Below are positions 1 to 39,800 of a stretch of DNA of 64,000 bases, one piece after another. Origin of the DNA: Mayamaea pseudoterrestris. Lineage: Eukaryota. A program made the translations under genes and the position numbers. The notes beneath the pieces are model-generated. The model did no database searches and was not told the origin of the DNA. It worked only from the letters and a program-made list of their open reading frames with translations. Location: assembly GCA_027923505.1 (NCBI GenBank), contig BROI01000030.1, positions 186,001 to 250,000 on the forward strand, written 5' to 3'. The stretch's first letter is position 1. Each line of letters starts with the position of its first letter.

Positions 1-32
1 TTGTTCAACTAATGAAATTATGTACACGTCTT

Positions 33-1204: not shown

Positions 1205-1225
1205 AGCAGCAGCAGCAGCAGCAGC
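1205..1225. repeat. (AGC)7 microsatellite just downstream of the PAC3 stop codon
   Basis: Read directly from the sequence. Confidence 0.9.
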
Positions 1226-1229
1226 ACTA

Positions 1230-2880: not shown

Positions 2881-3373
2881 AGACGACTGGGACGCGAGTT
2901 GGTGGTTGCCATTGTTGTTTGCATCTTTTGCAATCTCTATCGTCGGCAGTCGGGCATTATACTGACCCAGTTCATTCCATTTTGGTTTAACTTTAAATGC
3001 GTAACGCATATAGACCCCTTGTATTTTAGAGTTGCTGTATTCCCTCACTTGCACTCGAAACCGATATCAGCTGCCGGTGCTCACCCACTTGCATGTCGTT
3101 GCGAGTGCGTCTGCTCGCACATGACGGTCCATTTCATATACACGAGTAGAGAGGCACTAAACGCTTTACAGGATAGAGCGCATTGCTACCGCAAGTGCGT
3201 TACTATAAGTACGTGTTAATCAATCGAGACTAAACTAACGAATTACCGACAAATGTGCGAGAGCATTTACATGCTTCGATCGAATTCAAACTCTGACTAA
3301 ACTGCGACAACATCTCCATCTTCATGAATCCCAACTCAACCAAGTTTTGACAGGAACATCCAATCCTTGTCAT

Positions 3374-4573: not shown

Positions 4574-4882
4574 GCTGGTAGATGGACAAGGAATCAATAG
4601 TAGTATAAAGTAACGGGGCCTTTTTCGCTTGATAGCAACAACAACGGGTGAGCGATGGCGTCGAACGAGAAAAGTGAGGAGGCTGGGTGGAAGTCGTTGG
4701 TTCGCTTCGCCAAAAAGGTGAAAGTCGTTCCGGTACACCCAGTTTCGCTGCGACTTCTTATTGTCGCGGATTCATCGGCCATCCGTTTTTTCCTTCCTCC
4801 AATTTCCGTCGACTCTACCAAACAAACCTCCTTCCTATATTGTACCTGCAACAAGCTCCTAACCTGCGTACATACATAAATC
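4574..4882. promoter_or_regulatory. Short (309 bp) divergent intergenic region, probable bidirectional promoter
   Basis: Lies between head-to-head starts of the Man1-like gene (4573, -) and TTC4 (4883, +). Position only; no motif identified. Confidence 0.45.
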
Positions 4883-6608: not shown

Positions 6609-6671
6609 CTTTGAGCTTCAATCATAGTAGCAGCTAAAGAACAGTAATGATTATACTAATATGTCAGCATG

Positions 6672-16000: not shown

Positions 16001-17373
16001 AATGACACCAGAATTGTGCCAACATCATTATTCAGGCTGCGCTACAAGATGGTATGCGTGGCTAGTGTCTCGGGGATGGTATGATATTGGTGACAACTTG
16101 TCACCACTCAGCCCGCAGATGCCATGACATTCAAACGCCCCTACAGTAAGCCCTGTAGGTGCCCAAAATACACCAGAATGGTGCCAACATCATTATTCAG
16201 GCTGCGCTACAAGATGGTATACCTGGCTAGTGTCTCAGGGGATGGCAATGATATTGGTGACAACTTGTCACCAGTCTCAGCCTGCAGATGCCGTGACATT
16301 CAAACGCCCCTACAGCAGGCCCTGTAAAGCCCAAAATACACCAGAATATTGCCAACATCATTGCCGGCCTGGTCTAGGTCTCAGGGCCCACAAGAATTGG
16401 TCAACCCGTCTAGTGTCCAGATGCGTGATATTCAACTCGCCAGTCCAAACACTACAAGTGGAGGCGTGATCTCCCCAGATGCCGTGACATTCAAACGCAC
16501 CTACAGCAAGCCCTGTAGGTGCCCAAAATACACCAGAATGGTGCCAACATCATTATTCAGGCTGCGCTACAAGATGGTATGCCTGGCTAGTGTCTCAGGG
16601 GATAGCAATGATATTGGTGACAACTTGTCACCAGTCTCAGCCTGCAGATGCCGTGACATTCAAACGCCCTTACAGCAGGCCATGTATATACCCAAATGAC
16701 ACCAGAATGGTGCCAACATCATTTTTTTAGGCTGCGCTACAAGCTGGTATGCGTGGCTAGTGTCTAAGGGGACGGCAATGATATTGGTGACAACTTGTCA
16801 CCAGTCTCAGCCTGCAGATGCCATGACAATCAAACGCCCCTACAGCAGGCCATGTATACACCCAAATGACACCAGAATTGTGCCAACATCATTATCCAGG
16901 CTGCGCAACAAGATGGTATACCTGGCTAGTGTCCCAGGGGATGGCAATGATATTGGTGACAACTTGTCACCAGTCTCAGCCTGCAGATGCCGTGGCATTC
17001 AAACGCCCCTACAGCAGGCCATGTGTATACCCAAATGTCACCAGAAAATTGCCAACATCATTATTCAAGCTGCGCTAGAAGATGGTATGCCTGGCTAGTG
17101 TCTCAGGGGACAGCAATGACATTGGTGACAACTTGTCACCAGTCTCAGCCCGCAGATGACGTGACATTCAAACGCCCCTACAGGAAGCCCTGTAGGTGCC
17201 CAAAATACACCCGAATGGTGCCACCATTATTATTGTGGCTGCGCTACAAGTTGGTTTGCTTGACTGGTGTCTCAGGGCATGGCAATGTATTTGGTGACAA
17301 CTTGTCACCAGTCTCAGCCCGCAGATGTCGTGACATTAAACGCACCTACAGCAAGCCCTGTAGGTGCCCAAAT
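10065..17373 (+). repeat. Satellite A (169-bp monomer), subfamily A1, first block; indel-rich at its left end
   Basis: Tandem copies of ...aagatggtatgcctggctagtgtctcaggggacggcaatgatattggtgacaacttgtcaccagtctcagcctgcagatgccgtgacattcaaacgcccctacagcaggccatgtatacacccaaatgacaccagaatggtgccaacatcattattcaggctgcgctac... Confidence 0.97.
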
Positions 17374-19368
17374 CCAAATTATGGAATCATACCACTACAA
17401 TGCCCCATGCCCTGGCCACCCAACAACCCAATGAGTCAGGCAAAACATGTCCAGGGTGTGCCATGGACATGAGGATGGGCTGACATGGTGCAAAACGGAC
17501 TGCCTGGAGGCCTACACCATCTGCAAAATGGGTGTGGCCAACACCCCAAATTATGGACTCATACCACTACAATGCCCCATGCCCTGGCCACCCAACAACC
17601 CAATGAGTCAGGCAAAACATGTCCAGGGTGTGCCATGGACATGAGGATGGTCTGACATGGTACAAAACGGACTGCCTGGAGACCTACAGCATGGAATGGT
17701 CTACAAGATGGGTGCGGCCAACACCGCAAATTATGGAATCATACCACTACAATGCCCCGTCCCTTGATCACCCAACAACCCAATGAGTCATGCAAAACAT
17801 GTCCAGGGTGTGCCATTGACATGAGGATGGTCTGACATGGTACAAAACGGACTGCCTGGAGGCCTACAGCATGGAATGGTCTACAAGATGGGTGTGGCCA
17901 ACACCCCAAAATATGGAATCATACCACTACAATGCCCCATCCCCTGATCACCCAACAACCCAATGAGTCATGCAAAACATGTCCAGGGTGTGCCATTGAC
18001 ATGAGGATGGTCTGACATGGTACAAAACGGACTGCCTAGAGGCCTACAGCATGGAATGGTCTACAAGATGGGTGTGGCCAACACCCCAAATTATGGAATC
18101 ATACCACTACAATGCCCCATGCCCTGGCCACCCAACAACCCAATGAGTCATGCAAAACATGTCCAGGGTGTGCCATTGACATGAGGATGGGCTGAAATGG
18201 TGCAAAATGGACTGCCTGGATGCCTACACCATCTGCAAAATGGGTGTGGCCAACACCGCAAATTATGGAATCATACCACTACAATGCCCCATGCCCTGGC
18301 CACCCAACAACCCAATGTGTCAGGCAAAACATGTCCAGGGTGTGCCGTTGACATGAGGATGGGCTGAAATGGTGCAAAACGGACTGCCTGGAGGCCTACA
18401 CCATCTGCAAAATGGGTGTGGCCAACACCCCAAATTATGGAATCATACCACTACAATGCCCCATCCCCTGATCACCCAACAACCCAACGAGTCATGCAAA
18501 ACATGTCCAGGGTGTGCCAATGACATGAGGATGGTCTGACATGGTACAAAACGGACTGCCTGGAGGCCTACAGCATGGAATGGTCTACAAGATGGGTGTG
18601 GCCAACACCCCAAATTATGGAATCATACCACTACAATGCCCCATGCCCTGGCCACCCAACAACCCAATGAGTCAGGCAAAACATGTCCAGGGTGTGCCAC
18701 TGACAGGAGGATGGGCTGAAATGGTGCAAAACGGACTGGAAGGCCTACACCATCTGCAAAACGGGTGTGGCCAACACCCCAAATTATGGAATCATACCAC
18801 TACAATGCCCCGTTCCCTGATCACCCAACAACCCAATGAGTCATGCAAAACATGTCCAGGGTGTGCCACTGACACGAGGATGGTCTGACATGGTACAAAA
18901 CGGACTGCCTGGTGGCCTACAGCATGGAATGGTCTACAAGATGGGTGTGGCCAACACCCCAAATTATGGAATCATACCACTACAATGCCCCATGCTCTGG
19001 CCACCCAACAACCCAATGAGTCAGGCAAAACATGTCCAGGGTGTGCCATTGACATGAGGATGGGCTGAAATGGTGCAAAACGGACTGCCTGGAGGCCTAC
19101 AGCATGGAATGGTCTACAAGATGGGTATGGCCAACACCCCAAATTATGGAATCATACCACTACAATGCCCCATGCCCTGGCCACCCAACAACCCAATGAG
19201 TCAGGCAAAACATGTCCAGGGTGTGCCATTGACATGAGGATGGGCTGAAATGGTGCAAAACGGACTGCCTGCAAGGCCTACACCATCTGCAAAACGGGTG
19301 TGGCCAACACCCCAAATTAAGGAATCATACCACTACAATGTCCCGTCCCCTGATCACCCAACAACCCA
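17374..19368 (+). repeat. Satellite B block (~11 monomers of mainly 172 and 180 bp)
   Basis: The atgaggatgg motif or a one-base variant recurs at 17469, 17641, 17821, 18001, 18181, 18353, 18525, 18705, 18874, 19054 and 19234. Confidence 0.95.
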
Positions 19369-19385
19369 CTAACCCTAACCCTAAC
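19369..19385 (-). repeat. Interstitial telomeric repeat CTAACCCTAACCCTAAC (TTAGGG on - strand)
   Basis: Read directly at the SatB/SatA junction. Confidence 0.85.
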
Positions 19386-22300
19386 TAGGCCATGTATATA
19401 CCCAAATGACACCAGAATGGTGCTAACATCATTATTCAGGCTGCGCTACAAGATGGTAGGCTAGGCTGGTGTCTCAGGGCATGGCAATGTATTTGGTGAC
19501 AACTTGTCACCAGTCTCAGCCCGCAGATGACGTGACATTCAAACGCCCCTACAGGAAGCCCTGTAGGTGCCCAAAATACACCCGAATGGTGCCACCATTA
19601 TTATTGTGGCTGCGCTACAAGTTGGTTTGCTTGACTGGTGTCTCAGGGCATGGCAATGTATTTGGTGACAACTTGTCACCAGTCTCAGCCCGCAGATGTC
19701 GTGACATTAAACGCACCTACAGCAAGCCCTGTAGGTGCCCAAATTACACCAGACTGGTGCCAACATTATTATTCAAGCTGCGCTACAAGATGGTAGGCTT
19801 GGCTGGTGTCTCAGGAGACGGCAATGATATTGGTGACAACTTGTCACCAGTCTCAGCCTGCAGATGCCGTGACATTCAAACGCCCCTACAGCAGGCATTT
19901 AATACACCCAAATGACATCAGAATGGTGCCAACATCATTATTCAGGCTGCTCAACAAGATGGTATGCCTGGCTAGTGTCTCAGGGGACGGTAATAATATT
20001 GGTGACAACTTGTCACCAGTGTCAGCCTACAGATGCCGTGACATTCAAACGCCCTTACAGCAGGCCATGTATACACCCAAATGACACCAGAATGGTGCCA
20101 ACATCATTATTCAGGCTGAGCAACACGATGGTATGCCTGGCTAGTGTCTCAGGGGACGGCAATGATATTGGTGACAACTTGTCACCAGTCTCAGCCTGCA
20201 GATGCCGTGACATTCAAACGCCCCTACAGCAGGCCCTGTAGGTGCCCAAAATACACCAGAATATTGCCAACATCATTATTCAGGCTGCGCTACAAGATGG
20301 TATGCCTGGCTAGTGTCTCAGGGGACGGTAATGATATTGGTGACAACTTGTCACCAGTCTCAGCCTGCAGATGCCGTGACATTCAAACGCCCCTACAGCA
20401 GGCCATGTATACAACCAAATGACACCAGAATGGTGCCAACATCATTACTCAGGCTGCACAACAAGATGGTATGCCTGGCTAGTGTCTCAGGGGACGGCAA
20501 TGATATTGGTGACAACTTGTCACCAGTCTCAGTCTGCAGATGCCGTGACATTCAAACGCCCCTACAGCAGGCCATGTATACACCCAAATGACACCAGAAT
20601 GGTGCCAACATCATTATTCAGGCTGCGCAACAAGATGGTATGCCTGGCTAGTGTCTCAGGGGACGGCAATGATATTGGTGACAACTTGTCACCAGTCTCA
20701 GCCTGCAAATGCCGTGACATTCAAACGCCCTTACAGCAGGCCATGTATACACCCAAATGACACCAGAATGGTGCCAACATCATTATTCAGGCTGAGCAAC
20801 AAGATGGTATGCCTGGCTAGTGTCTCAGGGGACGGCAATGATATTGGTGACAACTTGTCACCAGTCTCAGCCTGCAGATGCCGTGACATTCAAACGCCCC
20901 TACAGCAGGCCCTGTAGGTGCCCAAAATACACCAGAATATTGCCAACATCATTATTCAGGCTGCGCTACAAGATGGTATGCCTGGCTAGTGTCTCAGGGG
21001 ACGGTAATGATATTGGTGACAACTTGTCACCAGTCTCAGCCTGCAGATGCCGTGACATTCAAATGCCCCTACAGCAGGCTATGTATACACCCAATTGACA
21101 CTGGAATGGTGGCAACATCATTATTCAGGCTGCGCTACAAGATGGTATGCCTAGCTATTGTCTCAGGGGACAGCAATGATATTGGTGACAACTTGTCACC
21201 AGTCTCAGCCCGGGGATGCTGTGACATTCAAACGCCCCTACAGCAGGCCATGAATATACCCAAATGACACCAGATTGGTGCCATCATCATTATTCAGGCT
21301 GCGCTACAAGATGGTATGCCTGGCTAGTGTCTCAGGGGACAGCAATGACATTGGTGACAACTTGTCACCAGTCTCAGCCTTCAGATGCCGTGACATTCAA
21401 ACGCCTTTACAGCAGGCCATGAATATACCCAAATGACACCAGAATGGTGCCAACATCATTATGCAGGCTGCGCTACAAGATGGTATACCTGGCTAGTGTC
21501 TCAGGGGATGGCAATGATATTGGTGACAACTTGTCACCAGTCTCAGCCTGCAGATGCCATGACATTCAAACGCCCCTACAGCAGGCCATGTATATACCCA
21601 AATGTCACCAGAATATTGCCAATATCATTATTCAAGCTGCCCTACAAGATGGTATGCCTGGCTAGTGTCTCAGGGGACAGCAATGATACTGGTGACAACT
21701 TGTCAACAGTCTCAGCCCGCAGATGCCGTGACATTCAAACGCCCCTACAGCAAGCCCTGTAGGTGCCCAAAATACACCAGAATGGTGCCAACATCATTAT
21801 TCAGGCTGCGCTACAAGATGGTATGCCTGGCTAGTGTCTCAGGGGACGGCAATGATATTGGTGACAACTTGTCACCAGTCTCAGCCTGCAGATGCCGTGA
21901 CATTCAAACGCCCTTACAGCAGGCCATGTATACACCCAAATGACACCAGAATGGTGCCAACATCATTATTCAGGCTGCGCAACAAGATGGTATGCCTGGC
22001 TAGTGTCTCAGGGGACGGCAATGATATTGGTGACAACTTGTCACCAGTCTCAGCCTGCAGATGCCATGACATTCAAACGCCCCTACAGCAGGCCATGTAT
22101 ACACCCAAATGACACCAGAATTGTGCCAACATCATTATCCAGGCTGCGCAACAAGATGGTATACCTGGCTAGTGTCCCAGGGGATGGCAATGATATTGGT
22201 GACAACTTGTCACCAGTCTCAGCCTGCAGATGCCGTGGCATTCAAACGCCCCTACAGCAGGCCATGTGTATACCCAAATGTCACCAGAAAATTGCCAACA

Positions 22301-25300
22301 TCATTATTCAAGCTGCGCTACAAGATGGTATGCCTGGCTAGTGTCTCAGGGGACAGCAATGACATTGGTGACAACTTGTCACCAGTCTCAGCCTTCAGAT
22401 GCCGTGACATTCAAACGCCTTTACAGCAGGCCATGAATATACCCAAATGACACCAGAATGGTGCCAACATCATTATTCAGGCTGCGCTACAAGCTGGTAT
22501 GCCTGGCTCGTGTCTCAGGGGACGGCAATGATATTGATGACAACTTGTCACCAGTCTCAGCCCGCAGATGCCGTGACATTCAAACGCCCCTACATCAGGC
22601 CCTGTAGGTGCCCAAAATACACCAGAATGGTGCCATCATCATTATTCAGGCTGCGCTACAAGATGGTATGCCTGGCTAGTGTCTCAGGGGACAGCAATGA
22701 CATTGGTGACAACTTGTCACCAGTCTCAGCCTTCAGATGCCGTGACATTCAAACGCCTTTACAGCAGGCCATGAATATACCCAAATGACACCAGAATGGT
22801 GCCAACATCATTATTCAGGCTGCGCTACAAGCTGGTATGCGTGGCTAGTGTTTAAGGGGACGGCAATGATATTGGTGACAACTTGTCACCAGTCTCAGCC
22901 TGCAGATGCCATGACAATCAAACGCCCCTACAGCAGGCCATGTATACACCCAAATGACACCAGAATTGTGCCAACATCATTATCCAGGCTGCGCAACAAG
23001 ATGGTATACCTGGCTAGTGTCCCAGGGGATGGCAATGATATTGGTGACAACTTGTCACCAGTCTCAGCCTGCAGATGCCGTGGCATTCAAACGCCCCTAC
23101 AGCAGGCCATGTGTATACCCAAATGTCACCAGAAAATTGCCAACATCATTATTCAAGCTGCGCTACAAGATGGTATGCCTGGCTAGTGTCTCAGGGGACA
23201 GCAATGACATTGGTGACAACTTGTCACCAGTCTCAGCCCGCAGATGACGTGACATTCAAACGCCCCTACAGGAAGCCCTGTAGGTGCCCAAAATACACCC
23301 GAATGGTGCCACCATTATTATTGTGGCTGCGCTACAAGTTGGTTTGCTTGACTGGTGTCTCAGGGGACGGCAATGATATTGGTGACAACTTGTCACCAGT
23401 CTCAGCCTGCAGATGCCGTGACATTAAACGCACCTACAGCAAGCCCTGTAGGTGCCCAAATTACACCAGACTGGTGCCAACGTTATTATTCAAGCTGCGC
23501 TACAAGATGGTAGGCTTGGCTGGTGTCTCAGGAGACGGCAATGATATTGGTGACAACTTGTCACCAGTCTCAGCCTGCAGATGCCGTGACATTCAAACGC
23601 CCCTACAGCAGGCATTTAATACACCCAAATGACATCAGAATGGTGCCAACATCATTATTCAGGCTGCGCTACAAGATGGTATGCCTGGCTAGTGTCTCAG
23701 GGGACGGTAATGATATTGGTGACAACTTGTCACCAGTGTCAGCCTGCAGATGCCGTGACATTCAAACGCCCTTACAGCAGGCCATGTATACACCCAAATG
23801 ACACCAGAATGGTGCCAACATCATTATTCAGGCTGCGCAACAAGATGGTATGCCTGGCTAGTGTCTCAGGGGACGGCAATGATATTGGTGACAACTTGTC
23901 ACCAGTCTCAGCCTGCAGATGCCGTGACATTCAAACGGCCCTTACAGCAGGCCCTGTAGGTGCCCAAAATACACCAGAATATTGCCAACATCATTATTCA
24001 GGCTGCGCTACAAGATGGTATGCCTGGCTAGTGTCTCAGGGGACGGCAATGATATTGGTGACAACTTGTCACCAGTCTCAGCCTGCAGATGCCGTGACAT
24101 ACAAACGCCCCTACAGCAGGCCATGTATACAACCAAATGACACCAGAATGGTGCCAACATCATTACTCAGGCTGCACAACAAGATGGTATGCCTGGCTAG
24201 TGTCTCAGGGGACGGCAATGATATTGGTGACAACTTGTCACCAGTCTCAGCCTGCAGATGCCGTGACATTCAAACGCCCCTACATCAGGCCATGTATACA
24301 CCCAAATGACACCAGAATGGTGCCAACATCATTATTCAGGCTGCGCTACAAGATGGTATGCCTGGCTAGTGTCTCAGGGGACGGCAATGATATTGGTGAC
24401 AACTTGTCACCAGTCTCAGCCTGCAGATGCCGTGACATTCAAACGCCCCTACAGCAGGCCATGTATACACCCAAATGACACCAGAATGGTGCCAACATCA
24501 TTATTCAGGCTGCGCTACAAGATGGTATGCCTGGCTAGTGTCTCAGGGGATGGCAATGATATTGGTGACAACTTGTCACCAGTCTCAGCCTGCAGATGCC
24601 GTGACATTCAAACGCCCCTACAGCAGGCCCTGTAGGTGCCCAAAATACACCAGAATATTGCCAACATCATTATTCAGGCTGCGCTACAAGATGGTATGCC
24701 TGGCTAGTGTCTCAGGGGACGGTAATGATATTGGTGACAACTTGTCACCAGTCTCAGCCTGCAGATGCCGTGACATTCAAACGCCCCTACAGCAGGCCAT
24801 GTATACACCCAATTGACACTGGAATGGTGGCAACATCATTATTCAGGCTGCGCTACAAGATGGTATGCCTGGCTAGTGTCTCAGGGGACAGCAATGATAT
24901 TGGTGACAACTTGTCACCAGTCTCAGCCCGCAGATGCCGTGACATTCAAACGCCCCTACAGCAGGCCATGTAGTGTCCAAAATGACACCAGAATGGTGCC
25001 AACATCATTATTCAGGCTGCGCTACAAGATGGTATGCCTGGCTAGTGTCTCAGGGGACGGTAATGACATTGGTGACAACTTGTCACCAGTCTCAGCCTTC
25101 AGATGCCGTGACATTCAAACGCCTACCAGCAGTCAGCCCTGTATGCCCAAAATGACACCAGAATGGTGCCAACATCATTATTCAGGCTGCGCTACAAGAT
25201 GATATGCCTGGCTAGTGTCTCAGGGGATGGCAATGATATTGGTGACAACTTGTCACCAGTCTCAGCCTGCAGATGCCGTGACATTCAAACGCCTTTACAG

Positions 25301-28300
25301 CAGGCCATGTAGGTGCCCAAAATGACACTAGAATGTTGCCAACATCATTATTCAGGCTGCGCTACAAGATGGTATGCCTGGCTAGTGTCTCAGGGGACAG
25401 CAATGATACTGGTGACAACTTGTCAACAGTCTCAGCCCGCAGATGCCGTGACATTCAAATGCCCCTACAGCAAGCCCTGTAGGTGCCCAAAATACACCAG
25501 AATGGTGCCAACATCATTATTCAGGCTGCGCTACAAGATGGTATGCCTGGCTAGTGTCTCAGGGGACAGCAATGACATTGGTGACAACTTGTCACCAGTC
25601 TCAGCCTGCAGATGCCGTGACATTCAAACGCCTCTACAGCAGGCCATGTATACACCCAAATGACACCAGAATGGTGCCAACATCATTATTCAGGCTGCGC
25701 TACAAGATGGTATGCCTGGCTAGTGTCTCAGGGGACGGCAATGATATTGGTGACAACTTGTCACCAGTCTCAGCCCGCAGATGCCGTGACATTCAAACGC
25801 CCCTACAGCAGGCCATGTATATACCCAAATGACACCAGAATGGTGCCAACATCATTATTCAAGCTGCGCTACAAGATGGTATGCCTGGCTAGTGTCTCAG
25901 GGGACAGCAATGATATTGGTGACAACTTGTCACCAGTCTCAGCCCGCAGATGCCGTGACATTCAAACGCCCCTACAGCAAGCCCTGTAGGTGCCCAAAAT
26001 ACACCAGAATGGTGCCAACATCATTATTCAGGCTGCGCTACAAGATGGTATGCCTGGCTAGTGTCTCAGGGGACGGCAATGATATTGGTGACAACTTGTC
26101 ACCAGTCTCAGCCTGCAGATGCCGTGACATTCAAACGCCCCTACAGCACGCGATGTACTTCCGAAAATGACACCAGAATGGTGCCAACATCATTATTCAG
26201 GCTGCGCTACAAGATGGTATGCCTGGCTAGTGTCTCAGGGGACGGCAATGACATTGGTGACAACTTGTCACCAGTCTCAGCCTGCAGATGCCGTGACATT
26301 CAAACGCCCCTACAGCAGGCCAGGTATATACCCAAATGACACCAGAATGTTGCCAACATCATTATTCAGGCTGCGCTACAAGATGGTATGCCTGGCTAGT
26401 GTCTCAGGGGACGGCAATGATATTGGTGACAACTTGTCACCAGTCTCAGCCTGCAGATGCCGTGACATTCAAACGCCCCTACAGCAGGCCATGTATGCAC
26501 CCAAATGACACCAGAATGGTGCCAACATCATTATTCAGGCTGCGCTACAAGATGGTATGCCTGGCTAGTGTCTCAGGGGACGGCAATGATATTGGTGACA
26601 ACTTGTCACCAGTCTCAGCCTGCAGATGCCGTGACATTCAAACGCCCCTACAGCAGGCCATGTATACACCCAAATGACACCAGAATGGTGCCAACATCAT
26701 TATTCAGGCTGCGCTACAAGATGGTATGCCTGGCTAGTGTCTCAGGGGACGGCAATGATATTGGTGACAACTTGTCACCAGTCTCAGCCTGCAGATGCCG
26801 TGACATTCAAACGCCCCTACAGCAGGCCATGTATACACCCAAATGACACCAGAATGGTGCCAACATCATTATTCAAGCTGCGCAACAAGATGGTATGCCT
26901 GGCTAGTGTCCCAGGGGACGGCAATGATATTGGTGACAACTTGTCACCAGTCTCAGCCTGCAGATGCCGTGACATTCAAACGCCCCTACAGCAGGCCATG
27001 TATACACCCAAATGACACCAGAATGGTGCCAACATCATTATTCAGGCTGCGCTACAAGATGGTATGCCTGGCTAGTGTCTCAGGGGACAGCAATGATATT
27101 GGTGACAACTTGTCACCAGTCTCAGCCTGCAGATGCCGTGACATTCAAACGCCCCTACAGCAGGCCCTGTAGGTGCCCAAAAGACACCAGAATGGTGCCA
27201 ACATCATTATTCAGGCTGCGCTACAAGATGGTATGCCTGGCTAGTGTCTCAGGGGACAGCAATGACATTGGTGACAACTTGTCACCAGTCTCAGCCTTCA
27301 GATGCCATGACATTCAAACGCCTTTACAGCAGGCCATGAATATACCCAAATGACACCAGATTGGTGCCAACATCATTATTCAGGCTGCGCAACAAGATGG
27401 TATGCCTGGCTAGTGTCTCAGGGGACAGCAATGATATTGGTGACAACTTGTCACCAGTCTCAGCCTGCAGATGCTGTGACATTCAAACGCCCCTACAGCA
27501 GGCCATGTATACACCCAAATGACACCAGAATGGTGCCAACATCATTATTCAGGCTGCGCTACAAGATGGTATGCCTGGCTAGTGTCTCAGGGGACGGCAA
27601 TGATATTGGTGACAACTTGTCACCAGTCTCAGCCCGCAGATGCCGTGACATTCAAACGCCCCTACAGCAGGCCATGTATACACCCAAATGACACCAGAAT
27701 GGTGCCAACATCATTATTCAGGCTGCGCAACAAGATGGTATGCCTGGCTAGTGTCTCAGGGGACGGCAATGATATTGGTGACAACTTGTCACCAGTCTCA
27801 GCCCGCAGATGCCGTGACATTCAAACGCCCCTACAGCAGGCCATGTATACACCCAAATGACACCAGAATGGTGCCAACATCATTATTCAGGCTGCGCTAC
27901 AAGATGGTATGCCTGGCTAGTGTCTCAGGGGACGGCAATGATATTGGTGACAACTTGTCACCAGTCTCAGCCCGCAGATGCCGTGACATTCAAACGCCCC
28001 TACAGCAGGCCCTGTAGGTGCCCAAAATACACCAGAATGGTGCCAACATCATTATTCAGGCTGCGCTACAAGATGGTATGCCTGGCTAGTGTCTCAGGGG
28101 ATGGCAATGATATTGGTGACAACTTGTCACCAGTCTCAGCCTGCAGATGCCGTGACATTTAAACGCCCCTACAACAGGCCAGGTATATACCCAAATGTCA
28201 CCAGAATATTGCCAAAATCATTATTCAGGCTGCGCAACAAGATGGTATGCCTGGCTAGTGTCTCAGGGGACGGCAATGATATTGGTGACAACTTGTCACC

Positions 28301-29151
28301 AGTCTCAGCCTGCAGATGCCGTGACATTCAAACGCCCCTACAGCAGGCCATGTATACACCCAAATGACACCAGAATGGTGCCAACATCATTATTCAGGCT
28401 GCGCAACAAGATGGTATGCCTGGCTAGTGTCTCAGGGGACAGCAATGATATTGGTGACAACTTGTCACCAGTCTCAGCCTGCAGATGCCGTGACATTCAA
28501 ACGCCCCTACAGCAGGCCATGTATACAACCAAATAACACCAGAATGGTGCCAACATCATTATTCAGGCTGCGCTACAAAATGGTATGCCTGGCTAGTGTC
28601 TCAGGGGATGGCAATGATATTGGTGACAACCTGTCACCAGTCTCAGCCTGCAGATGCCGTGACATTCAAACGCCCCTACAGCAGGCCATGTATACACCCA
28701 AATGACACCAGAATGGTGCCAACATCATTATTCAAACTGCGCTACAAGATGGTATGCCTGGCTAGTGTCTCAGGGGACGGCAATGATATTGGTGACAACT
28801 TGTCACCAGTCTCAGCCCGCAGATGCCGTGACATTCAAACGCCCCTACAGCAAGCCCTGTAGGTGCCCAAAATACACCAGAATGGTGCCAACATCATTAT
28901 TCAGGCTGCGCTACAAGATGGTATGCCTGGCTAGTGTCTCAGGGGACGGCAATGATATTGGTGACAACTTGTCACCAGTCTCAGCCTGCAGATGCCGTGA
29001 CATTCAAACGCCCCTACAGCAGGCCATGTATACACCCAAATGACACCAGAATGGTGCCAACATCATTATTCAGGCTGCGCTACAAGATGGTATGCCTGGC
29101 TAGTGTCTCAGGGGATGGCAATGATATTGGTGACAACTTGTCACCAGTCTC
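19386..29151 (+). repeat. Satellite A (169 bp), subfamily A1, homogeneous core (~58 monomers) with higher-order structure
   Basis: Equivalent ORF starts at 26336, 26505, 26674, 26843 and 27012 are exactly 169 bp apart. Diagnostic variants recur at ~3718 bp. Confidence 0.98.
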
Positions 29152-29379
29152 GGCTCATTCCGGTGCAGGGGGAAGAAAGCCGCACCGGACAATTGAACAC
29201 CAAGAAGCACATGCACCTACTCGAGACTTTACCTGATACCGCCTTACTACGCTCCGCGCGGCGAAAGCCTCGCGACGTCGATTCTCGTCTCCTCATTCTG
29301 TTGCACGAAGTCAACTGCAGACATCCGAGTCAAGCAGTTCCAGTACTTCATTAGATAGTCTCATAAGCTTCAGGCTACC

Positions 29380-31342
29380 ATGGCTGACGCTCCTCCTGTC
29401 CCTCACGCCATTGGGGGCCCCGCCGGCATCTCGACCAACGCCTCGCTCCTCGACTTCTTCGCCTCGCCGACCAACGACGCCCTTCGCGGCAACAGCCGCG
29501 CGTGGATCGAGCAGCTCGACCCACTTGTCCACGACTACGACGGCGCTGACATTCTCGAACGAATCGTCAGCGTGCCTCCGACGCGCGCCGGCGCTTACAT
29601 CCGTTACCATCGCACGGAACCAGGCGACACGATCGGGACGATCAAGGTTTACACTGGCTTTCAGCAGTACGTCGCAGGCCTCGTCATGACGCCCCTCGAC
29701 GGGCGAGTCTACGCTACGCTGGGCGACCTCGTCGCCGGCCAAGGGCACTGTGTACGCATCGTGGAACGCGACTTCGACGCCCTACCGAACGAGACGATCC
29801 CAACGACCGACGATATCGCGTGCGCCTGGTGGGACGACCACGACTGGACCGGCATGCTAGGCAACTGCGTACTCCAAGACCCGGGATTCGTGACACTTCG
29901 GTCGGCGACCCGTCGGGCGGCGGGCGGGCGCGACGCGGGACGCCTGCCCCTGCAGCACGAGCTGGTGGAGCTTCTGATGGATCACGAGTACGACAGAGGC
30001 CTACCGCACCGTGTTGCACGCGCGCGCGCCGACGCAATTTGACAATTATCCGCGAACTACGACTTTCTCCTTGCGCACGACACCGCCGCGATCCCGCTCG
30101 CTCGCTCCGCCGCCAGTGCCAGTGCTGATGACGCAATCCCTCGCCGAGCAGCGTGTCGCCGTGCATCGCATGTACCTTCCGCTGCCGGCGCCGCCCCAAG
30201 CACCAATCGACAGCATCCGACTGATGACGCTCCTCGCTCAAGAACGCAGCGCATCACGCAAAACGGACCCCCGCGCGCAACTCACCAGCGTTCGGCGACG
30301 TGGCATGACTCCACGAACGCTGGACGACAGCGACGCGTGGCCGCCTATCTGGGCGGTCCTCGCGGGTAGCACCAGCGCCAACGCATTGAACAACTTGGCC
30401 GACGCCTACCGCCAGTCGGGCGGACCAGGCTGCCGCCCCATCGCCACGCCAGCGCACTTGAGCCTCCTCAAGCACGTCGCGCTCGCGCCCGACAACATCA
30501 ACGACCTGACGCAAGGCCTCCAGCCGTTTATCGTCGCCACGCTCGACACCAGCACCAACTCAGCATCGACTCGAACGGCCGAGATCCAAGCCAACGTGGA
30601 AGACCACCAACTGGTCTTTGAAGGGGGCTCCGTGGACTTGCGCGACGCCCGCTCGTTCCGCGAGGCGAATCGCAAGATCTTCGCCCCGAACACCCCGACT
30701 CAGTTCCGCTCGCAGATGGAAGCCTACCTCAAGGTACTCAAGCAGGTACTAGGGGCGACGCACACGCTCACGGTAACAGTCGACACGTTCATGGTAATGT
30801 ACCGAGAGAAGGAGCACGACTACGAAGGCTACCTCGGCCGCATAAGTCAAGCAAAGGACGCATGGACCAGATCCGTGTCGCCACTTCCGACTTCGCGCGG
30901 ATGGAGCGCGGGGACACGACAGCGCCAGCGCTTCTCAGTCCCCTCCGCATGTGGGACTACCAAGTCCGCAGCTACGACCGATGCCGGCCCCGGTCCTGGC
31001 GCACACCTGGGCGCGGGGAGGGCGGGCGCAGCCGACGGCAGATTGGCGACAACAGGCACCGCGCGCCAGCCTGCAGGTGCCGCCACGCCCGCACGCCACG
31101 CAGCAGGGGCGCGGCACGCGGAGGCAGCGGACGCAGGCCACGCACCCACGGGCACCCACTCACCCTGCATTCACGCCATCCGCATCACGCATTCACGCGA
31201 CGACGGCACGCCGATGTGTCTAACCTACCATGTACGAGGCAGTTGCACGACAGCGTGCGCACGCCGCGCCGACCATGGCCCCCATACGCCGACTGAGACG
31301 GCGCGCTTGGTGGCCTGGTGCCAGTCCGTGCCGTCCCCGTAG
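29380..31342 (+). pseudogene. Gag-like ORF1 of the DIRS-like element (frameshifted)
   Basis: Overlapping ORFs 29380-30042 and 30011-31342, C-terminal CLTYHVRGSCTTACARRADH (C-x9-C-x3-C-x5-H), located immediately upstream of RT. Confidence 0.6.
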
Positions 31343-31408
31343 GGGGCCGGCAGGCCGTCGCCTGGCGCGCGACGGTCACAGCCTGCAAGTCTTCGGGAGG
31401 GTCGTCAA

Positions 31409-32700
31409 GTGAGGCGGCGGATCGAAGAAGGCAGGAGTAGTCTAACTGAAAACCTAACTAGTCACATGTTTGTTCCAAACGCTAATCTAGGTAAGCCACC
31501 ATTCGACGGAGCCGTTGGCAAACTGACCCAGCGCTCCACCACCACGTTACGCAGACGCCGTGCTGCACCGACCCCGACATTCCGACCGACATTAGCGTCC
31601 ATCTCCGAGTCCAGCGAGGAGACGCTCGACCCCTCGACACCGACAAGCGAAGTAGCGACTCGCGCCCCACCGACATCCTTCGACGCATCACGCACGCCAC
31701 CGCACACGCGCGGGGGTCCACGCGACGCACCTCCACGGCCACTGACACCCACGGCGCCTCGGCCGGCGCAACTCCTCGACGACCCACTCGGCGACCTAGT
31801 ACGCGAAGCACACCACACGCTGCAGGCCTCCACGTCGTGGGAGGACTTTATCATTCGAGTACGCGACCCACCGGACCTCGCCGACACGGTGGGCGACATT
31901 GACCATCCAGCGCGCCACCTCCTACGCCATCTTCGGGACCGGGGCGCGCCCGTCCAACTGCAGACTGCGCCGTGGACGGCGGAACGACGACAAGCCGCGA
32001 TCGACCGTGGCCCCCATCAGTCCGCCAAGGACCATCAAGCTTTTCTACGCGAAGAGTTCGCCGACATGATACACAAGGGACATTGGATCGTGGTACCAGC
32101 CAGTTCCGTCGCCCACTTGCCCGACCTGCGACTTAGCCCCGTGGGCGCCGTGGAACAACGGGAGCGACGACCGCGCACGATCGTGGACTACAGCTTCTTC
32201 GGCGTAAACGACGAGTCCGTGCCGATCGCACCATTCGAGTCGATGCAATTCGGCCGGGCCTTGCACCGAATCATGTATCGCGCCAATCCACGTTACGGAA
32301 ACGTACGCCTCGCGAAAATCGACATCGCCGACGGTTTCTACCGCATCGGGCTACGACCGGCCGACATACCGAAGTTGGGCGTCCTCTTTCCCACGAGTCC
32401 GGGCGAAGAACAACTGATAGCTTTTCCGCACGTCACCTATGGGGTGTATTCCGCCGCCATTCTTACGCCGGCCACCGAGACGATCGCCGACATCGCCAAC
32501 GCCACGCCACGCCACAACACCACCCGCACAGTGGAAAGGAAGCCGGGCAACGGTGGCCCAGCGCTCCCGCGCTCGCACGCGACTCCGTGCTCCGGTATGT
32601 CAACGCTCACGGCCCCCCAGTCGACGCCGAGCGCGTCGTGACTTTTGTGCCCAACGCAGTCGCGCGCCACCAAGCGGTACGCCGCCTCTTCCGCGACTCG
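31409..32700 (+). pseudogene. Reverse transcriptase ORF of the DIRS-like element (frameshifted, 3' degraded)
   Basis: LREEFADMIHKGHW, LRLSPVGAVEQRERRPRTIVDYSF, MQFGRAL, LAKIDIADGFYRIGL, TETIADIAN. No intact YxDD; the expected position reads YVNAH in another frame. Confidence 0.85.
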
Positions 32701-33050
32701 ACGTGTCCGCCTGCTCCTCCACCCACGCAAGTTACGCCGGCGCGTGTCCCGACGGTTCGGGTGGGCAGCTCCCCGCTTGCTACCGTCCAGTGGGGGGGGC
32801 CCGCCGCCTTGCCTGCGTCTGCGCGGCTCTTCTCGGGCTTTGCCTCCCCTCGAGCACTCGGGACCGCCTGAACCCGCCGTGCCACTTTTCTCCCGCTTTC
32901 GCGTCGTCCTCCCGCCTTCCCGCTTCCCGCACCACGGATGCAGCCGGCCGGGGCCGGCCGTTCTTCCCTCATAAATGGTGCCCGCAGGCACCCGCCGCCA
33001 TCATATACGGCGTCTCCACGCGATTCAGTCAATCCACTCACGCAGCACCG

Positions 33051-33423
33051 TGGTATACCCTGGACATGTTTGGCCTGACTCATTGGGTATTTGGGTGGCC
33101 AGGGCATGGGCGTTTGACAGGTAGAATCGACAACTTGTGGTGTTGGCCATACCCACCGTGAGCCGTGCCCATGGTGTCAGCCTCCAGGCAGTCCTTTTGC
33201 ACCATTTGAGACTCTGCCTGTCAATACCATACCCTGGACATGTTGGCTTGACTCATTGGGTATTTGGGTAGCCAGGGCATGGGGCGTTTGACAGGTCAGA
33301 ATCGACAACTTGTGGTGTTGGCCATACCCACCGTGGAGGCCGTGTGTGTCAGCCTCCAGGCAGTCCTTTTACCATTTGAGACTCTGCACCTGTGAATGGC
33401 ATACCTAGACTTGTCGTGGCCTG
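33051..33423 (-). repeat. About two monomers of satellite C inside the DIRS-like element
   Basis: ccctggacatgtttggcctgactcattgggtatttgggtggccagggcatggg... matches the 33833-42478 array. Confidence 0.85.
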
Positions 33424-33593
33424 ATTTCTCAGACTTCCTCCGAAATGGGAGGCTGTTGGAGCGACACTGGGCCTGGGGGGGGGCTGGCAAGTAAACTGCC
33501 TGTTAACACCAACTCGTCTCTCCAACTAGCTAGCTGCCTAGATGGGCTGGATGACAGCAAGCCGGTATGTCGGCTAGGACAAAGGACTGGCCG

Positions 33594-33803
33594 CTGCAGA
33601 TGCCGTGACATTCAAACGCCCCTACAGCAGGCCCTGTAGGTGCCCAAAATACACCAGAATGGTGCCAACATCATTATTCAGGCTGCGCTACAAGATGATA
33701 TGCCTGGCTAGTGTCTCAGGGGATGGCAATGATATTGGTGACAACTTGTCACCAGTCTCAGCCCGCAGATGCCGTGACATTCAAACGCCCCTACAGCAAG
33801 CCA
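33594..33803 (+). repeat. Satellite A1 remnant (~1.2 monomers)
   Basis: ctgcagatgccgtgacattcaaacg...ctacagcaagcca; includes the intact dyad. Confidence 0.95.
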
Positions 33804-33804
33804 A

Positions 33805-33832
33805 GTTAGGGTTAGGGTTAGGGTTAGGGTTA
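33805..33832 (+). repeat. Interstitial telomeric repeat G(TTAGGG)4TTA
   Basis: Read directly at the SatA/SatC junction. Confidence 0.95.
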
Positions 33833-36800
33833 TGCACCATTTGAGACTATGAACCTGTCAATGGCCTACCCTGGACATGTTTTGCCTGACTAATTGGGTA
33901 TTTGGGTGGCCAGGGCATGGGGCGTTTGACAGGGAAGAATCTGCAACTTGTGGTGTTGGCAATTGGGTATTTGGGTGGCCAGGGCATGGGGCGTTTGACA
34001 GGGAAGAATCTGCAACTTGTGGTGTTGGCATACCCACAGTGGAGGCCATACCCATGTTTTCAGCCTCCAGGCAGTCCTTTTTGCACCATTTGAGACTATG
34101 CACCTGTCAATGGCCTACCCTGGACATGTTTTGCCTGACTCATTGGGTATTTGGGTGGCCAGGGCATGGGGCGTTTGACAGGGAAGAATCTGCAACTTGT
34201 TAACGGACCGTGCTGTTTTCAGCCTCCAGGCAGTCCTTTTGCACCATTTGAGACTATGCACCTGTCAATGGCATACCCTGGACATGTTTTGCCTGACTCA
34301 TTGGGTATTTGGGTGGCCAGGGCATGGGGGCAAGGGAAAACTTGGGTTTTTGCCATACCCACAGTGGAGGCCGTACCCATGGTGTCAGCCTCCAGGCAGT
34401 CCTTTTTGCACCATTTGAGACTATGCACCTGTCAATGGCATACCCTGGACATGTTTTGCCTGACTCATTGGGTATTTGGGTGGCCAGGGCATGACAAGGG
34501 CGACAAATGACCGGGAGTACCCACGCCATGGTGTCAGCCTCCAGGCAGTCCTTTTGCACCATTTGAGACTATGCACCTGTCAATGGCATACCCTGGACAT
34601 GTTTTGCCTGACTCATTGGGTATTTGGGTGGCCATGGCATAAACGTTTGACAGGGAAGAATCTGCAACTTGTGGTGTTGGCCATACCCACCGTGGAGGCC
34701 GTACCCATGGTGTCAGCCTCCAGGCAGTCCTTTTTGCACCATTTGAGACTCTGCACCTGTCAATAGCATACCCTGGACATGTTTTGCCTGACTCATTGGG
34801 TATTTGGGTGGCCAGGGCATGGGGCGTTTGACAGGGAAGAATCTGCAACTTGTGGTGTTGGCCATACCACAGTGGAGGCCGTACCCTTGGTGTCAGCCTC
34901 CAGGCAGTCCTTTTTGCACCATTTGAGACTCTGCACCTGTCAATGGCATACCCTGGACATGTTTTGCCTGACTCATTGGGTATTTGGGTGGCCAGGGCAT
35001 GGGGCGTTTGACAGGGATGAATCTGCAACTTGTGGTGTTGGCCATACCCACAGTGGAGGGCGTAGCCATGCGGTGAGCCGGCAGGCAGTCCGGTGTGCAC
35101 CATTTGAGACTGTGCACCTGTCAATGGCATACCCTGGACATGTTTTGCCTGACTCATTGGGTATTTGGGTGGCCAGGGCATGGGGCGTTTGACAGGGAAG
35201 AATCTGCAACTTGTGGTGTTGGCCATACCCACAGTGGAGGCCGTACCCATGTTGTCAGCCTTCAGGCAGTCCTTTTTTGCACCATTTGAGACTCTGCACC
35301 TGTCAATGGCCTACCCTGGACATGTTTTGCCTGCTCATTGGGTATTTGGTGGCCAGGGCATGGGCGTTTGAAAGGAAGAATCTGCAACTTGTGGTGTTGG
35401 CCATACCCACAGTGGAGGCCGTACCCATGTTGTCAGCCTTCAGGCAGTCCTTTTTGCACCATTTGAGACTCTGCACCTGTCAATGGCATACCCTGGACAT
35501 GTTTTGCCTGACTCATTGGGTATTTGGGTGGCCAGGGCATGGGGCGTTTGACAGGGAAGAATCTGCAACTTGTGGTGTTGGCCATACCCACAGTGGAGGC
35601 CGTACCCATGTTGTCAGCCTCCAGGCAGTCCTTTTTGCACCATTTGAGACTCTGCACCTGTCAATGGCATACCCTGGACATGTTTTGCCTGACTCATTGG
35701 GTATTTGGGTGGCCAGGGCATGGGGCGTTTGAATGGGAAGAATCTGCAACTTGTGGTGTTGGCCATACCCACAGTGGAGGCCGTACCCATGTTTTCAGCC
35801 TCCAGGCAGTCCTTTTGCACCATTTGAGACTCTGCACCTGTCAATGGCATCCCCTGGACATGTTTTGCCTGACTCATTGGGTATTTGGGTGGCCAGGGCA
35901 TGGGGCGTTTGACAGTTCAGAATCGACAACTTGTGGTGTTGGCCATACCCACAGTGGAGGCAGTACCCATGGTGTCAGCCTCCAGGCAGTCCTTTTTGCA
36001 CCATTTGAGACTCTGCACCTGTCAATGGCATACCCTGGACATGTTTTGCCCTGACTCATTGGGTATTTGGGTGGCCAGGGCATGGGGCGTTTGACAGGTC
36101 AGAATCGACAACTTGTGGTGTTGGCCATACCCACCGTGGAGGCCGTACCCATGGTGTCAGCCTCCAGGCAGTCCTTTTTTTGCACCATTTGAGACTCTGC
36201 ACCTGTCAATGGCATACCCTGGACATGTTTTGCCTGACTCATTGGGTATTTGGGTGGCCAGGGCATGGGGCGTTTGACAGGTAAGAATCGACAACTTGTG
36301 GTGTTGGCCATACCCACAGTGGAGGCCGTACCCATGGTGTCAGCCTCCAGGCAGTCTTTTTTGCACCATTTGAGACTCTGCACCTGTCAATGGCATACCC
36401 TGGACATGTTTTGCCTGACTCATTGGGTATTTGGGTGGCCAGGGCATGGGGCGTTTGACAGGGAAGAATCTGCAACTTGTGGTGTTGGCCATACCCACAG
36501 TGGAGGCCGTACCCATGTTTTCAGCCTCTAGGCAGTCCTTTTCCCACCATTTGAGACTCTGCACCTGTCAATGGCATACCCTGGACATGTTTTGCCTGAC
36601 TCATTGGGTATTTGGGTGGCCAGGGCATGGGGCGTTTGACAAGGAAGAATCTGCAACTTGTGGTGTTGGCCATACCCACAGTGGAGGCCGTACCCATGTT
36701 GTCAGCCTCCAGGCAGTCCTTTTTGCACCATTTGAGACTCTGCACCTGTCAATGCCATACCCTGGACATGTTTTGCCTGACTCATTGGGTATTTTGGTGG

Positions 36801-39800
36801 CCAGGGCATGGGGCGTTTGACGGGGAAGAATCTGCAACTTGTGGTGTTGGCCATACCCACAGTGGAATTGCCCTACGCCTGTTGTCAGCCTCAGGCAGTC
36901 CTTTTGCACCATTTGAGACTATGCACCTGTCAATGGCATACCCTGGACATGTTTTTGCCTGACTCATTGGGTATTTAGGGTGTGCCAGGACATGGGGCGT
37001 TTGACAGGGGAAGAATCTGCAACTTGTGGTGTTGGCATACCCACAGTGGAGGCCGGTACCCCATTTTTTCCAGGCCTCCAGGCAGTCCTTTTTGCAGCAC
37101 CATTTGAGACTATGCACCTGTCAATGGCATACCCTGGACATGTTTTGCCTGACTCATTGGGTATTTGGGTGGCCAGGGCATGGGGCGTTTGACAGGGAAG
37201 AATCTGCAACTTGTGGTGTTGGCCATACCCACAGTGGAGGACGTACCCATGTTGTCAGCCTCCAGGCAGGACTTTTTTGCACCATTTGAGACTCTGCACC
37301 TGTCAATGGCATCCCCTGGACATGTTTTGCCTGACTCATTGGGTATTTGGGTGGCCAGGGCATGGGGACGTTTGACAGGATGAATCTGCAACTTGTGGTG
37401 TTGGCCATACCCCACAGTGGAGGCCGTACCCATGTTGTCAGCCTCCAGGCAGTCCTTTTTTTGCACCATTTGAGGCTATGACCGTGTCATTGGCATACCC
37501 TGGACATGTTTTGCCTGACTCATTGGGTATTTGGGTGGCCAGGGCATGGGGCGTTTGATAGGGAAGAATCTGCAACTTGTGGTGTTGGCCATACCCACAG
37601 TGGAGTACCCATGGTGTCAGCCTCCAGGCAGTCCTTTTTGCACCATTTGAGACTATGCACCTGTCAATGGCATACCCTGGACATGTTTTGCCTGACTCAT
37701 TGGGTATTTGGGTGGCCAGGGCATGGGGCATTTGACAGGGAAGAATCTGCAACTTGTGGTGTTGGCCATACCCACAGTGGAGGCCGTACCCATGTTGTCA
37801 GCCTCCAGGCAGTCCTTTTTGCACCATTTGAGACTATGCACCTGTCAATGGCATCCCCTGGACATGTTTTGCCTGACTCATTGGGTATTTGGGTGGCCAG
37901 GGCATGCTAGGGCATGGGGCGTTTGACAGGGAAGAATCTGCAACTTGTGGTGTTGGCCATACCCACAGTGGAGGCCGTACCCATGGTGTCAGCCTCCAGG
38001 CAGTCCTTTTTGCACCATTTGAGACTCTGCACCTGTCAGTGGCATACCCTGGACATGTTTTGCCTGACTCATTGGGTATTTGGGTGGCCAGGGCATGGGT
38101 CGGTTTGGCAGGAGAATCTACAACTTGTGGTGTTGGCCATACCCACAGTGGAGGCCGTACCCACGTTTTCAGCCTCCAGGCAGTCCTTTTGCACCATTTG
38201 ATACTATGCACCTGTCAATGCCACACCCTGGACATGTTTTGCCTGACTCTTTGGCGGTATTTGTAGGGCATGGGGCGTTTGACAGGAAAGAATCTACAAC
38301 TTGTGGTGTTGTACCCCACCGTGGAGGCCGTACCCATGTTGTGTCAGCCTCAGGCAGTCCTTTTTGCACCATTTGAGACTCTGCACCTGTCAATGGCATA
38401 CCCTGGACATGTTTTGCCTGACTCATTGGGTATTTGGGTGGCCAGGGCATGGGGCGTTTGACAGGGAAGAATCTGCAACTTGTGGTGTTAGCCATACCCA
38501 CAGTGGAGGCCGTACCCATGGTGTCAGCCTCCAGGCAGGCCTTTTTTGCACCATTTGAGACTCTGCACCTGTCAATGGCATACCCTGGACATGTTTTGCC
38601 TGACTCATTGGGTATTTGGTGGCCAGGGCATGGGGCGTTTGACAGGAGAATCTGCAACTTGTGGTGTTGGCCATACCCACAGTGGAGCCGTACCATAGTT
38701 GTCAGCCTCAGGCAGTCCTTTTGCACCATTTGAGACTCTGCACCTGTCAATGGCAAACCAGAGGCAATGACAGTAGGCCGCACCCATTTGTCAGCCTCCA
38801 GGCAGTCCTCTTATACCCTGGACATTTTTGCCTGACTCATTGGGTTTTGGGTGTGGGCATGGGGCGTTTGACGAGGGAAGAATCGCAACTGGGGGCCTTC
38901 CAGTGGAGCCGTACCCATGTTGTCAGCCTCCAGGCAGTCTTTTTGCACCATTTGGACTCTCACCTGTCAATGGCCTCCCTGGACATGTTTTGCCTACATT
39001 TCATTGAATTGTTGGTGGCTTGGGGCATGCTTGAGCAGGGAAGATCTGTTGTGGTGTTGTCCCACAGTGGAGCCGTACCCATAGTGTCAGCCTCAAACAG
39101 TCCTTTTCCATTGGGACTATGCACCTGTCAATGGCCTACCCTGGACATGTTTTACTTTCTGCTTTTACCACCTTACCTGCACCTGTCATAGGTGTTGGGC
39201 AGCCAGGGCATGGGGCGTCACAGCAAGGAAGAATCTGCAACTTGTGGTGTTAGCCATACCCACAGTGGAGGCAGGGCATGGGGCGTTGAAGGTCAAAATT
39301 GACAATGTGGTGTTGGACCATACCCACCCTCGGAGGCGATCCATGGTGTCACCTCCAGGCAGTCCTTTTGCACCATTTGAGACTCTGCACCTGTCAATGG
39401 CATACCCTTGACATGTTTGGCCTGACTCATTGGGTATTTGGGTGGCCAGGGCATGGGGCGTTTAACAGGGAAGAATCTGCAACTTGTGGTGTTGGCCATA
39501 CCCACCGTGGAGGCCGTACCCATGGTGTCAGCCTCCAGGCAGTCCTTTTTGCACCGACTGTCAATGGCATACCCTGGACATGTTTGGCCTGACTCATTGG
39601 GTATTTGGATGGCCAGGGCATGGGGCGTTTGACAGGTCAGAATCTGCAACTTGTGTTGGCCATACCCACCTGGACGCTCCTGCACTCCATGGTGTCGCCT
39701 CCAGGCAGTCATTTTGCACCATTTGGAGTATTCTACACCTGTCAATGGCATACCCTGGACATGTTTGGCCTGACTCATCGGGTATTTGTGGCCAGGGCAT

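Follow-up and report, generated by a model that had tools for sequence, protein, structure and literature searches.

Paired short telomere tracts at the borders of a diatom satellite block as possible scars of healed and rejoined ends

Do the two short runs of telomere repeats that border a satellite block in diatom DNA mark a site that is cut in a regular way, or do they record old breaks that were repaired? The question is raised by a 64-kb stretch of Mayamaea pseudoterrestris DNA (contig BROI01000030.1, positions 186,001 to 250,000; hereafter the window, in whose own numbering all positions are given). The window is a satellite mosaic adjoining ordinary genes, and within it a block of 169-bp satellite repeats (SatA) is separated on either side, by such a run, from arrays of a 180-bp satellite (SatB). 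A preliminary description of the locus had noted that both telomere-addition points fall at the same position of the SatA monomer, and had seen in this a candidate signal for programmed, site-specific breakage followed by healing. The first of these statements holds, whereas the second finds no support. We consider the two tracts as scars of old break-and-repair, in which SatA ends healed by telomerase would have been rejoined to other satellite DNA, a reading to which we would give about an even chance.

Telomere-like sequence is present in the window at two places only, 19369-19385 and 33805-33832. A search with TTAGGGTTAGGG, allowing at most one mismatch, yielded five matches, all of which lay within the two tracts; the expected number was 0.16 and none of 100 shuffled sequences reached five, so that the tracts are not the product of chance. 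At the left junction SatB ends with ...CAACAACCCA at 19368 and is followed by the minus-strand tract (CCCTAA)2.8 (CTAACCCTAACCCTAAC, 19369-19385), a single T (19386) and SatA, which starts as AGGCCATGTATATACCC at 19387. At the right junction SatA runs as ...CCCCTACAGCAAGCCA up to 33803 and is followed by an A (33804), the plus-strand tract (TTAGGG)4.7 (in full G(TTAGGG)4TTA, 33805-33832) and an inverted SatB array that opens with TGCACCATTTGAG. When read on the minus strand, the left tract is AG TTAGGG TTAGGG TTAG and runs outward from SatA, the junction being ...CATGGCCT AG TTAGGGTTAGGGTTAG; on the plus strand, the right junction is ...AGCAAGCCA AG TTAGGG.... At both junctions the G-rich strand thus points away from SatA, and each tract begins with AG followed by TTAGGG. 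The repeat units are exact, each tract (17-28 bp) has a single orientation and both occupy internal sites. Given that they are interstitial and only 17-28 bp long, the tracts represent relics and not active ends. One or two extra bases (A, or AG) are found at both junctions. With the junctions written as ...GCCA|AG TTAGGG and ...GGCCT|AG TTAGGG, no more than a single base (G) fits the register of the repeat, and an in-register priming triplet was found at neither of the two.

The positions of the junctions on the monomer were read from a SatA consensus of 169 bp, built from 57 monomers and numbered from the G of GGCCATG as position 1. The first SatA base on the left is consensus position 169 (AGGCCA|TGTATATACCC, from 19387) and the last one on the right is position 5 (CCCCTACAGC|AAGCCA, to 33803), so the two borders do coincide on the monomer. 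Positions 169-5 are kept on both sides, as AGGCCA on the left (19387-19392, plus strand, the first SatA bases) and as AAGCCA on the right (33798-33803, plus strand, the last SatA bases), with one G/A mismatch; the A(G/A)GCCA hexamer of the preliminary description was thereby recovered, as was its distance of 43 bp (33755 to 33798) from the end of the 19-bp dyad TGGTGACAACTTGTCACCA upstream. The assignment of the two hexamers to opposite strands has to be corrected. SatA is on the plus strand at both junctions; it is the strand with the G-rich repeats at its 3' end that changes from one junction to the other. Consequently, the tracts sit on opposite strands of the satellite and SatA faces them in opposite orientations, by which a single homogenised subtelomeric satellite-telomere junction is ruled out. 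The retained 6-bp overlap is centred on GGCC and fits the geometry expected of staggered ends with 3' overhangs. As to the coincidence itself, a distance of 6 bp or less between two random phases has a probability of 13/169 = 0.077, in line with the 7% estimated earlier, and the number of junctions is two. Identity is only 91.1% between the last monomer of the block and the one found ahead of the first monomer's paralogue, and as the hexamers also differ (G/A), two different monomers were broken. A single break within one monomer was rejected on the same ground, the end monomers not being neighbours in the paralogous arrays.

The hexamer had furthermore been described as overlapping the loop of a second dyad, CCTACAG-CAGGCC-CTGTAGG (CCTACAG-N6-CTGTAGG). 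This dyad is indeed present in variant monomers (e.g. 33621-33640), but it is absent from both of the monomers that were broken. The minority subtype that carries it has a C at position 5 (28 anchors, versus an A in 60), and both broken monomers have the A, which marks the ATGTAT subtype without the second dyad, so that this dyad was lacking where the breaks fell. In the left broken monomer the ATGTAT subtype can be seen directly (AGGCCATGTATATA). The half-palindrome CCTACAG adjoins the junction site. Over 130 monomers, the mismatch amounts to 18.9% at positions 6-15, the most variable decamer, versus 1.8-2.5% within positions 105-134, which hold the 19-bp dyad; the junction site is therefore the border of the least conserved part of the monomer. 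In the same way, 22-mers of the consensus occur 3-8 times at the junction region versus 109 times at the dyad. About 160 other SatA monomers of the window have the hexamer region without any tract. For four stretches around the site, the folds of single-strand DNA were in no case better than those of shuffles (z of 0.41, 0.16, -0.40 and -0.15), and a hairpin at the break site was rejected on that basis.

The 19-bp dyad TGGTGACAACTTGTCACCA and the ten bases that follow it (consensus 105-134, e.g. 33735-33764) constitute by far the most conserved part of SatA, with ~2% mismatch over the 130 monomers. The region looks as if it were a protein-binding box, for which it may be regarded as a candidate. 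A search of the open-access full-text literature for the dyad string returned no match. When metagenomes were scanned with the best-conserved 22-mer of SatA, two loci were recovered, which had only 22-23 shared bases each, as expected by chance, and showed neither SatA/B/C homology nor telomere repeats. A query of a protein collection with the open reading frame (ORF) that crosses the right junction gave 38 candidates, none of which scored, and recovered no satellite-derived ORFs.

Outside the tracts the block is flanked by a different satellite. On the left lies a plus-strand SatB array of about 11 copies of the 180-bp unit (17374-19368), which stops at consensus position 57, in a G-rich motif; on the right the SatB arrays are inverted (33833-42477, minus strand) and begin at consensus position ~123. 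The two flanks are thus cut at different phases and their mutual identity is only 74.5-75.4%. Judged by the inverted orientation and an identity of ~75%, the two arrays would represent two subfamilies, and since the sequence beyond the tracts belongs to another satellite, in inverted orientation and alike to such a limited extent, each tract joins unrelated DNA. The SatB unit carries a G-rich, telomere-like motif (TTGGGTTGTTGGG or TTGGGTATTTGGG), and it is this motif (minus strand TGGGTTGTTGGG) that the left tract abuts. In addition, the left junction lies within a direct duplication: 17122-17373 and 19493-19744 are 100% identical over 252 bp, and the repeat encloses SatB, the telomere tract and 106 bp of SatA. 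In the complete alignment 340 of 358 positions are identical, with all 18 differences within the first 106 columns. Paralogous SatA stretches are 93.6-98.1% identical, and the perfect identity of the 252 bp therefore points to a recent rearrangement at the left junction. A third paralogue of the duplication is found at 23104-23461, where it is 98% identical and lies within an uninterrupted array.

Considering the outward orientation and the common AG+TTAGGG start, we propose that telomerase acted on two non-telomeric SatA 3' ends. The starting point would have been a SatA piece with two broken ends, represented today by 59 monomers and a retroelement-bearing insert in the penultimate one (the SatA between the tracts adds up to 9978 bp, or 59.04 monomers). 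Telomerase would then have added a few TTAGGG repeats at each end, to whichever strand had its 3' end free. The identical AG-then-TTAGGG start is what one would expect if one enzyme positions non-telomeric ends by one rule; a default placement of such ends on the telomerase template is known from ciliate biochemistry and could explain it. The short tracts would subsequently have been end-joined to SatB on both sides, before or instead of full telomere growth, the left join falling in the G-rich, telomere-like motif of SatB itself. Telomerase as the agent, the order of these events and the origin of the block as a single fragment are what we infer from this arrangement. The shared phase may then be due to chance (1 in 13) or to a slight preference for a part of the monomer that is exposed or prone to repair. 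Breaks could have been more frequent in one particular linker, as a unit of 169 bp has about the length of a nucleosome repeat. Of the staggered cut with subsequent telomere addition that had been suggested earlier, the sequence of events is compatible with the orientation, the AG+TTAGGG starts and the 6-bp overlap, whereas a preferred or site-specific cut finds no support.

The repeat in question is the normal one for diatoms, whose telomeres are of the TTAGGG type (PMC9266582, PMC3622300). Documented counterparts are found in vertebrates, in which short telomere tracts have been inserted during double-strand-break repair and in which added bases, deletions or duplications are reported at the flanks (PMC7215372, Table 5). 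Like the vertebrate tracts described in PMC7215372 (see also PMC8537989), those in the window consist of a few exact TTAGGG units, are internal, have one orientation and show extra bases or duplications at the flanks. Unlike the cases described there, in which the flanks are contiguous in the empty allele and the tract lies inside one break, each tract in the window joins two unrelated satellites, and the two tracts bracket a block in the orientation of chromosome ends. Relics of telomere-telomere fusion likewise consist of internal repeats that mark an old rearrangement. These are head-to-head, however, whereas each tract of the window has one orientation and non-telomeric satellite on both sides; a fusion relic of the form (TTAGGG)n(CCCTAA)n was rejected accordingly.

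Several points weigh against healing followed by rejoining. The flanks of each tract are SatA and an unrelated 180-bp satellite, in contrast to the contiguous flanks of documented repair-type tracts, and a more complex history, with fragment capture or translocation, is therefore needed. Were ...CCA or ...CCT simply paired with a TTAGGG template, the product would not be expected to start with AG+TTAGGG. The phase match (p = 0.077) is left unexplained, and both junctions are taken from assembled sequence. Moreover, telomerase activity went undetected in vegetative Phaeodactylum tricornutum in the experiments described in PMC3622300. Pending read-level confirmation, we nevertheless place the finding with the known short interstitial telomere tracts that mark repaired breaks. 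If real, such tracts mark in a diatom where a satellite broke, met telomerase and was rejoined, and show how satellite mosaics get rebuilt. AG+TTAGGG on a non-telomeric end would then be a signature of de novo telomere addition in organisms where telomerase activity is hard to detect. In the open-access full-text literature we found no description of interstitial telomere tracts, de novo telomere addition or programmed breakage in diatoms. One lead, on telomere-capped transgene arrays in a paper on P. tricornutum engineering, was dropped, as 'telomer' occurs in it zero times.

The geometry of the two ends leaves some room for a single concerted event. In that case one and the same nuclease or structure-specific activity would have acted at the GGCC-centred site, either in two SatA monomers or by opening a SatA circle with one cut, which we regard as unlikely but not negligible. 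The 6-bp overlap is symmetric about GGCC, the start and register are identical in both tracts, and the block exceeds an integer multiple of the monomer by 6-7 bp. In eukaryotes, satellite circles made up of complete units are common. Two 3' overhangs of six nucleotides, both healed, would then be the outcome of a one-off accident and not of a programme. The hexamers differ at one base, though, and the end monomers are no neighbours (91.1% identity), which makes a single cut in a linear array unlikely. Besides, the block holds no candidate nuclease gene, only SatA and a truncated retroelement, and at n = 2 nothing separates a concerted cut from chance.

An assembly artefact is comparably doubtful. 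The tracts themselves, or their placement on one 14.4-kb block, would in that case have resulted from the assembly of 8-10 kb arrays from short Nanopore reads and from the merging of assemblies; the junctions may belong to different loci or haplotypes, or one of them may be a chimeric join. One published assembly of M. pseudoterrestris was found, which was made from Nanopore reads with an N50 of 8.6 kb at 52x coverage by merging Raven and NextDenovo assemblies with MAC 2.0; haplotigs were purged, and a heterozygosity of 2.97% is reported (PMC9724779). If the window derives from that assembly, an artefact has to be reckoned with as a possibility. A zeaxanthin-epoxidase (ZEP)-like ORF of the window (6672-8399, minus strand) shows 100% identity to a protein named by NCBI from this same pennate diatom. 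The SatA array (9.8 kb, ~96% identity between monomers) and the SatB arrays (8.6 kb) exceed typical reads, from which it follows that the linkage of the junctions on one block and the copy numbers are uncertain. The perfect 252-bp duplication round the left junction could be the product of a serial merge of two haplotypes, and further perfect tandem duplications are found near by (33892-34030 and 45246-46069). On the other hand, real telomeres would be far longer than 17-28 bp, and at 52x a chimeric join would have to be backed by the consensus. TTAGGG tracts are not something that an assembler makes between two satellites without overlap, and both tracts consist of exact repeats after short-read polishing. 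An error of linkage, finally, leaves the phases of the junctions unchanged. Short exact tracts of this kind are, as far as one can tell from their sequence, hard to produce as an artefact.

A far smaller chance is given to the proposal with which the question started, namely that a signal in SatA directs recurrent breakage at a specific site, possibly programmed by the life cycle, and de novo telomere addition, comparable to the Cbs of Tetrahymena or the SFE of Oscheius tipulae. The same monomer position on both sides, the presence of repeats on both kinds of end and the half-palindrome CCTACAG beside the site speak for it, and the authors of PMC3622300 speculated about a diatom telomerase that would be active at certain stages only. 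The SFE is described as a degenerate palindrome of 29-30 bp at the centre of which both sides are healed (PMC13060919, PMC10980081), and its conserved GGC/GCC ends prime the addition of TTAGGC in register (PMC13060919). The geometry resembles that at the SFE, in that the repeats in the window occur on both sides of one monomer position beside a palindromic sequence, though with two junctions chance would give such agreement at p = 0.077. Unlike at the SFE as it is described in these papers, an in-register triplet is lacking, the broken monomers are without the dyad, and the window offers two relic junctions without a split between soma and germline. The Cbs is a highly conserved 15-bp motif with at least 200 copies, where the ends are trimmed by 4-30 bp before addition (PMC13060919). 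A sequence-defined break with subsequent de novo telomere addition would be the common feature, but nothing in the window compares to a conserved multi-copy motif such as the Cbs described there. The priming bases reported for Cbs ends are CCAACC, in register, against at most one G at our junctions.

Several observations speak against a signal. There are two junctions with p = 0.077, both tracts are tiny and internal, the full dyad is missing in both broken monomers, no fold signal was obtained, and the site borders the most variable decamer. An in-register priming triplet is lacking at both junctions, and the hexamer region is without a tract in the other SatA monomers of the window, about 160 in number. 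Other borders of SatA in the window fall at phases ~20, ~101, ~130-133 and ~142, and no such system in diatoms was found in the open-access full-text literature. A clustering of SatA borders near the hexamer was considered and dropped, because the other borders lie at these four phases and the events are too few for a test. A more specific form, in which a recurrent GGCC-centred cut leaves 6-nt 3' overhangs that are healed by the AG-then-TTAGGG rule, so that telomere-capped fragments are released that persist or re-integrate, is a long shot to the same degree. If it were true, it would constitute an algal counterpart of the motif-directed breakage of nematodes and ciliates, possibly tied to a stage with active telomerase. 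With a site-specific process breakpoints would be found mostly at positions 169-5, with tracts starting as AGTTAGGG. A fixed breakage signal would matter greatly, yet the case for it consists of two junctions and a 1-in-13 coincidence.

Least credible is the idea that the tracts are the terminal inverted repeats of a mobile element, telomere-like and of the form 5'-AG(TTAGGG)n...(CCCTAA)nCT-3', which on insertion duplicated a 6-bp target. The tracts do form a perfect inverted pair of 18 bp (CTAACCCTAACCCTAACT and AGTTAGGGTTAGGGTTAG), and a 6-bp repeat does adjoin them. This repeat, however, is found on the inner side of the tracts instead of the outer one, the sequences beyond them (ACCCA, TGCAC) differ from each other, no transposase is encoded in the block (its ORFs are without a Pfam match and one of them is related to retroelements), and in the reverse reading the whole remaining chromosome would have to be the 'element'. 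Among known elements, Polintons have AG/CT tips together with duplications of 6 bp, and the TBE1/Tec elements of ciliates are telomere-tipped.

The block between the tracts is itself composite. Its main part is a plus-strand SatA array (19387-29154) with 58 BLAST-mapped monomers, having a mean identity of 96% to the consensus, which is interrupted at phase ~130-133 by a GC-rich insert of 4.4 kb (29155-33593, plus strand). The insert splits the penultimate monomer of the block, and SatA restarts behind it at phase ~133-134 with the final 1.2 monomers (33594-33803, plus strand), which end at position 5. It contains a SatB fragment (33051-33424, minus strand), low-copy ends and what looks like a truncated copy of a retroelement. 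An ORF of 432 amino acids (31343-32641, plus strand) has 252 relatives, mostly unnamed metagenome proteins, of which the best is 58% identical over 55% of the query. Some of these relatives are from diatoms (Fragilaria, Cyclostephanos, Cylindrotheca) and some contain a PF00078 reverse transcriptase domain. A Pfam search with the ORFs of the insert recovered zero families, even at E = 10.

Seven sequencing runs from two studies contain a fraction of 0.23-0.50 of the words sampled from 29000-34100. In contigs assembled from four of the runs, the ends of the insert are joined to each other (33593 to 29155) in all four, and a short form, in which 29372 is joined to 33461 with 18 other bases between, is equally present in four out of four. 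The ends therefore belong to a unit of ~369 bp that is tandem or circular elsewhere, and the insert in the window is such a unit carrying a nested piece of 4.1 kb. The interval 32591-32932 is without contig cover in all four runs, although such a hole proves nothing. In the same contigs the satellite bins are orders of magnitude deeper than the insert, a depth that is not to be taken as a copy number.

Beyond the block the mosaic continues on both sides. To the left of SatB lies another plus-strand SatA array (10071-17373), which stops at monomer phase ~20; at its join with SatB (17373/17374, window 17368-17379) the two satellites have a CCAAAT microhomology in common. To the right, the inverted SatB arrays are followed by a third satellite with a unit of ~342 bp (42494-51645), which consists of two related half-units and separates SatB from the next SatA array (51646-56250, plus strand); a further SatA array is found at 59146-63954 on the minus strand. 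Of the perfect tandem duplications, the one at 33892-34030 (69 bp, twice) lies 60 bp from the right tract and the one at 45246-46069 (412 bp, twice) within the 342-bp satellite; these may have arisen recently or be errors of the assembly. At its left edge the satellite field adjoins intron-poor ordinary genes (1-10000), among which are the ZEP-like ORF and a TPR-rich ORF at 4880-6475 on the plus strand.

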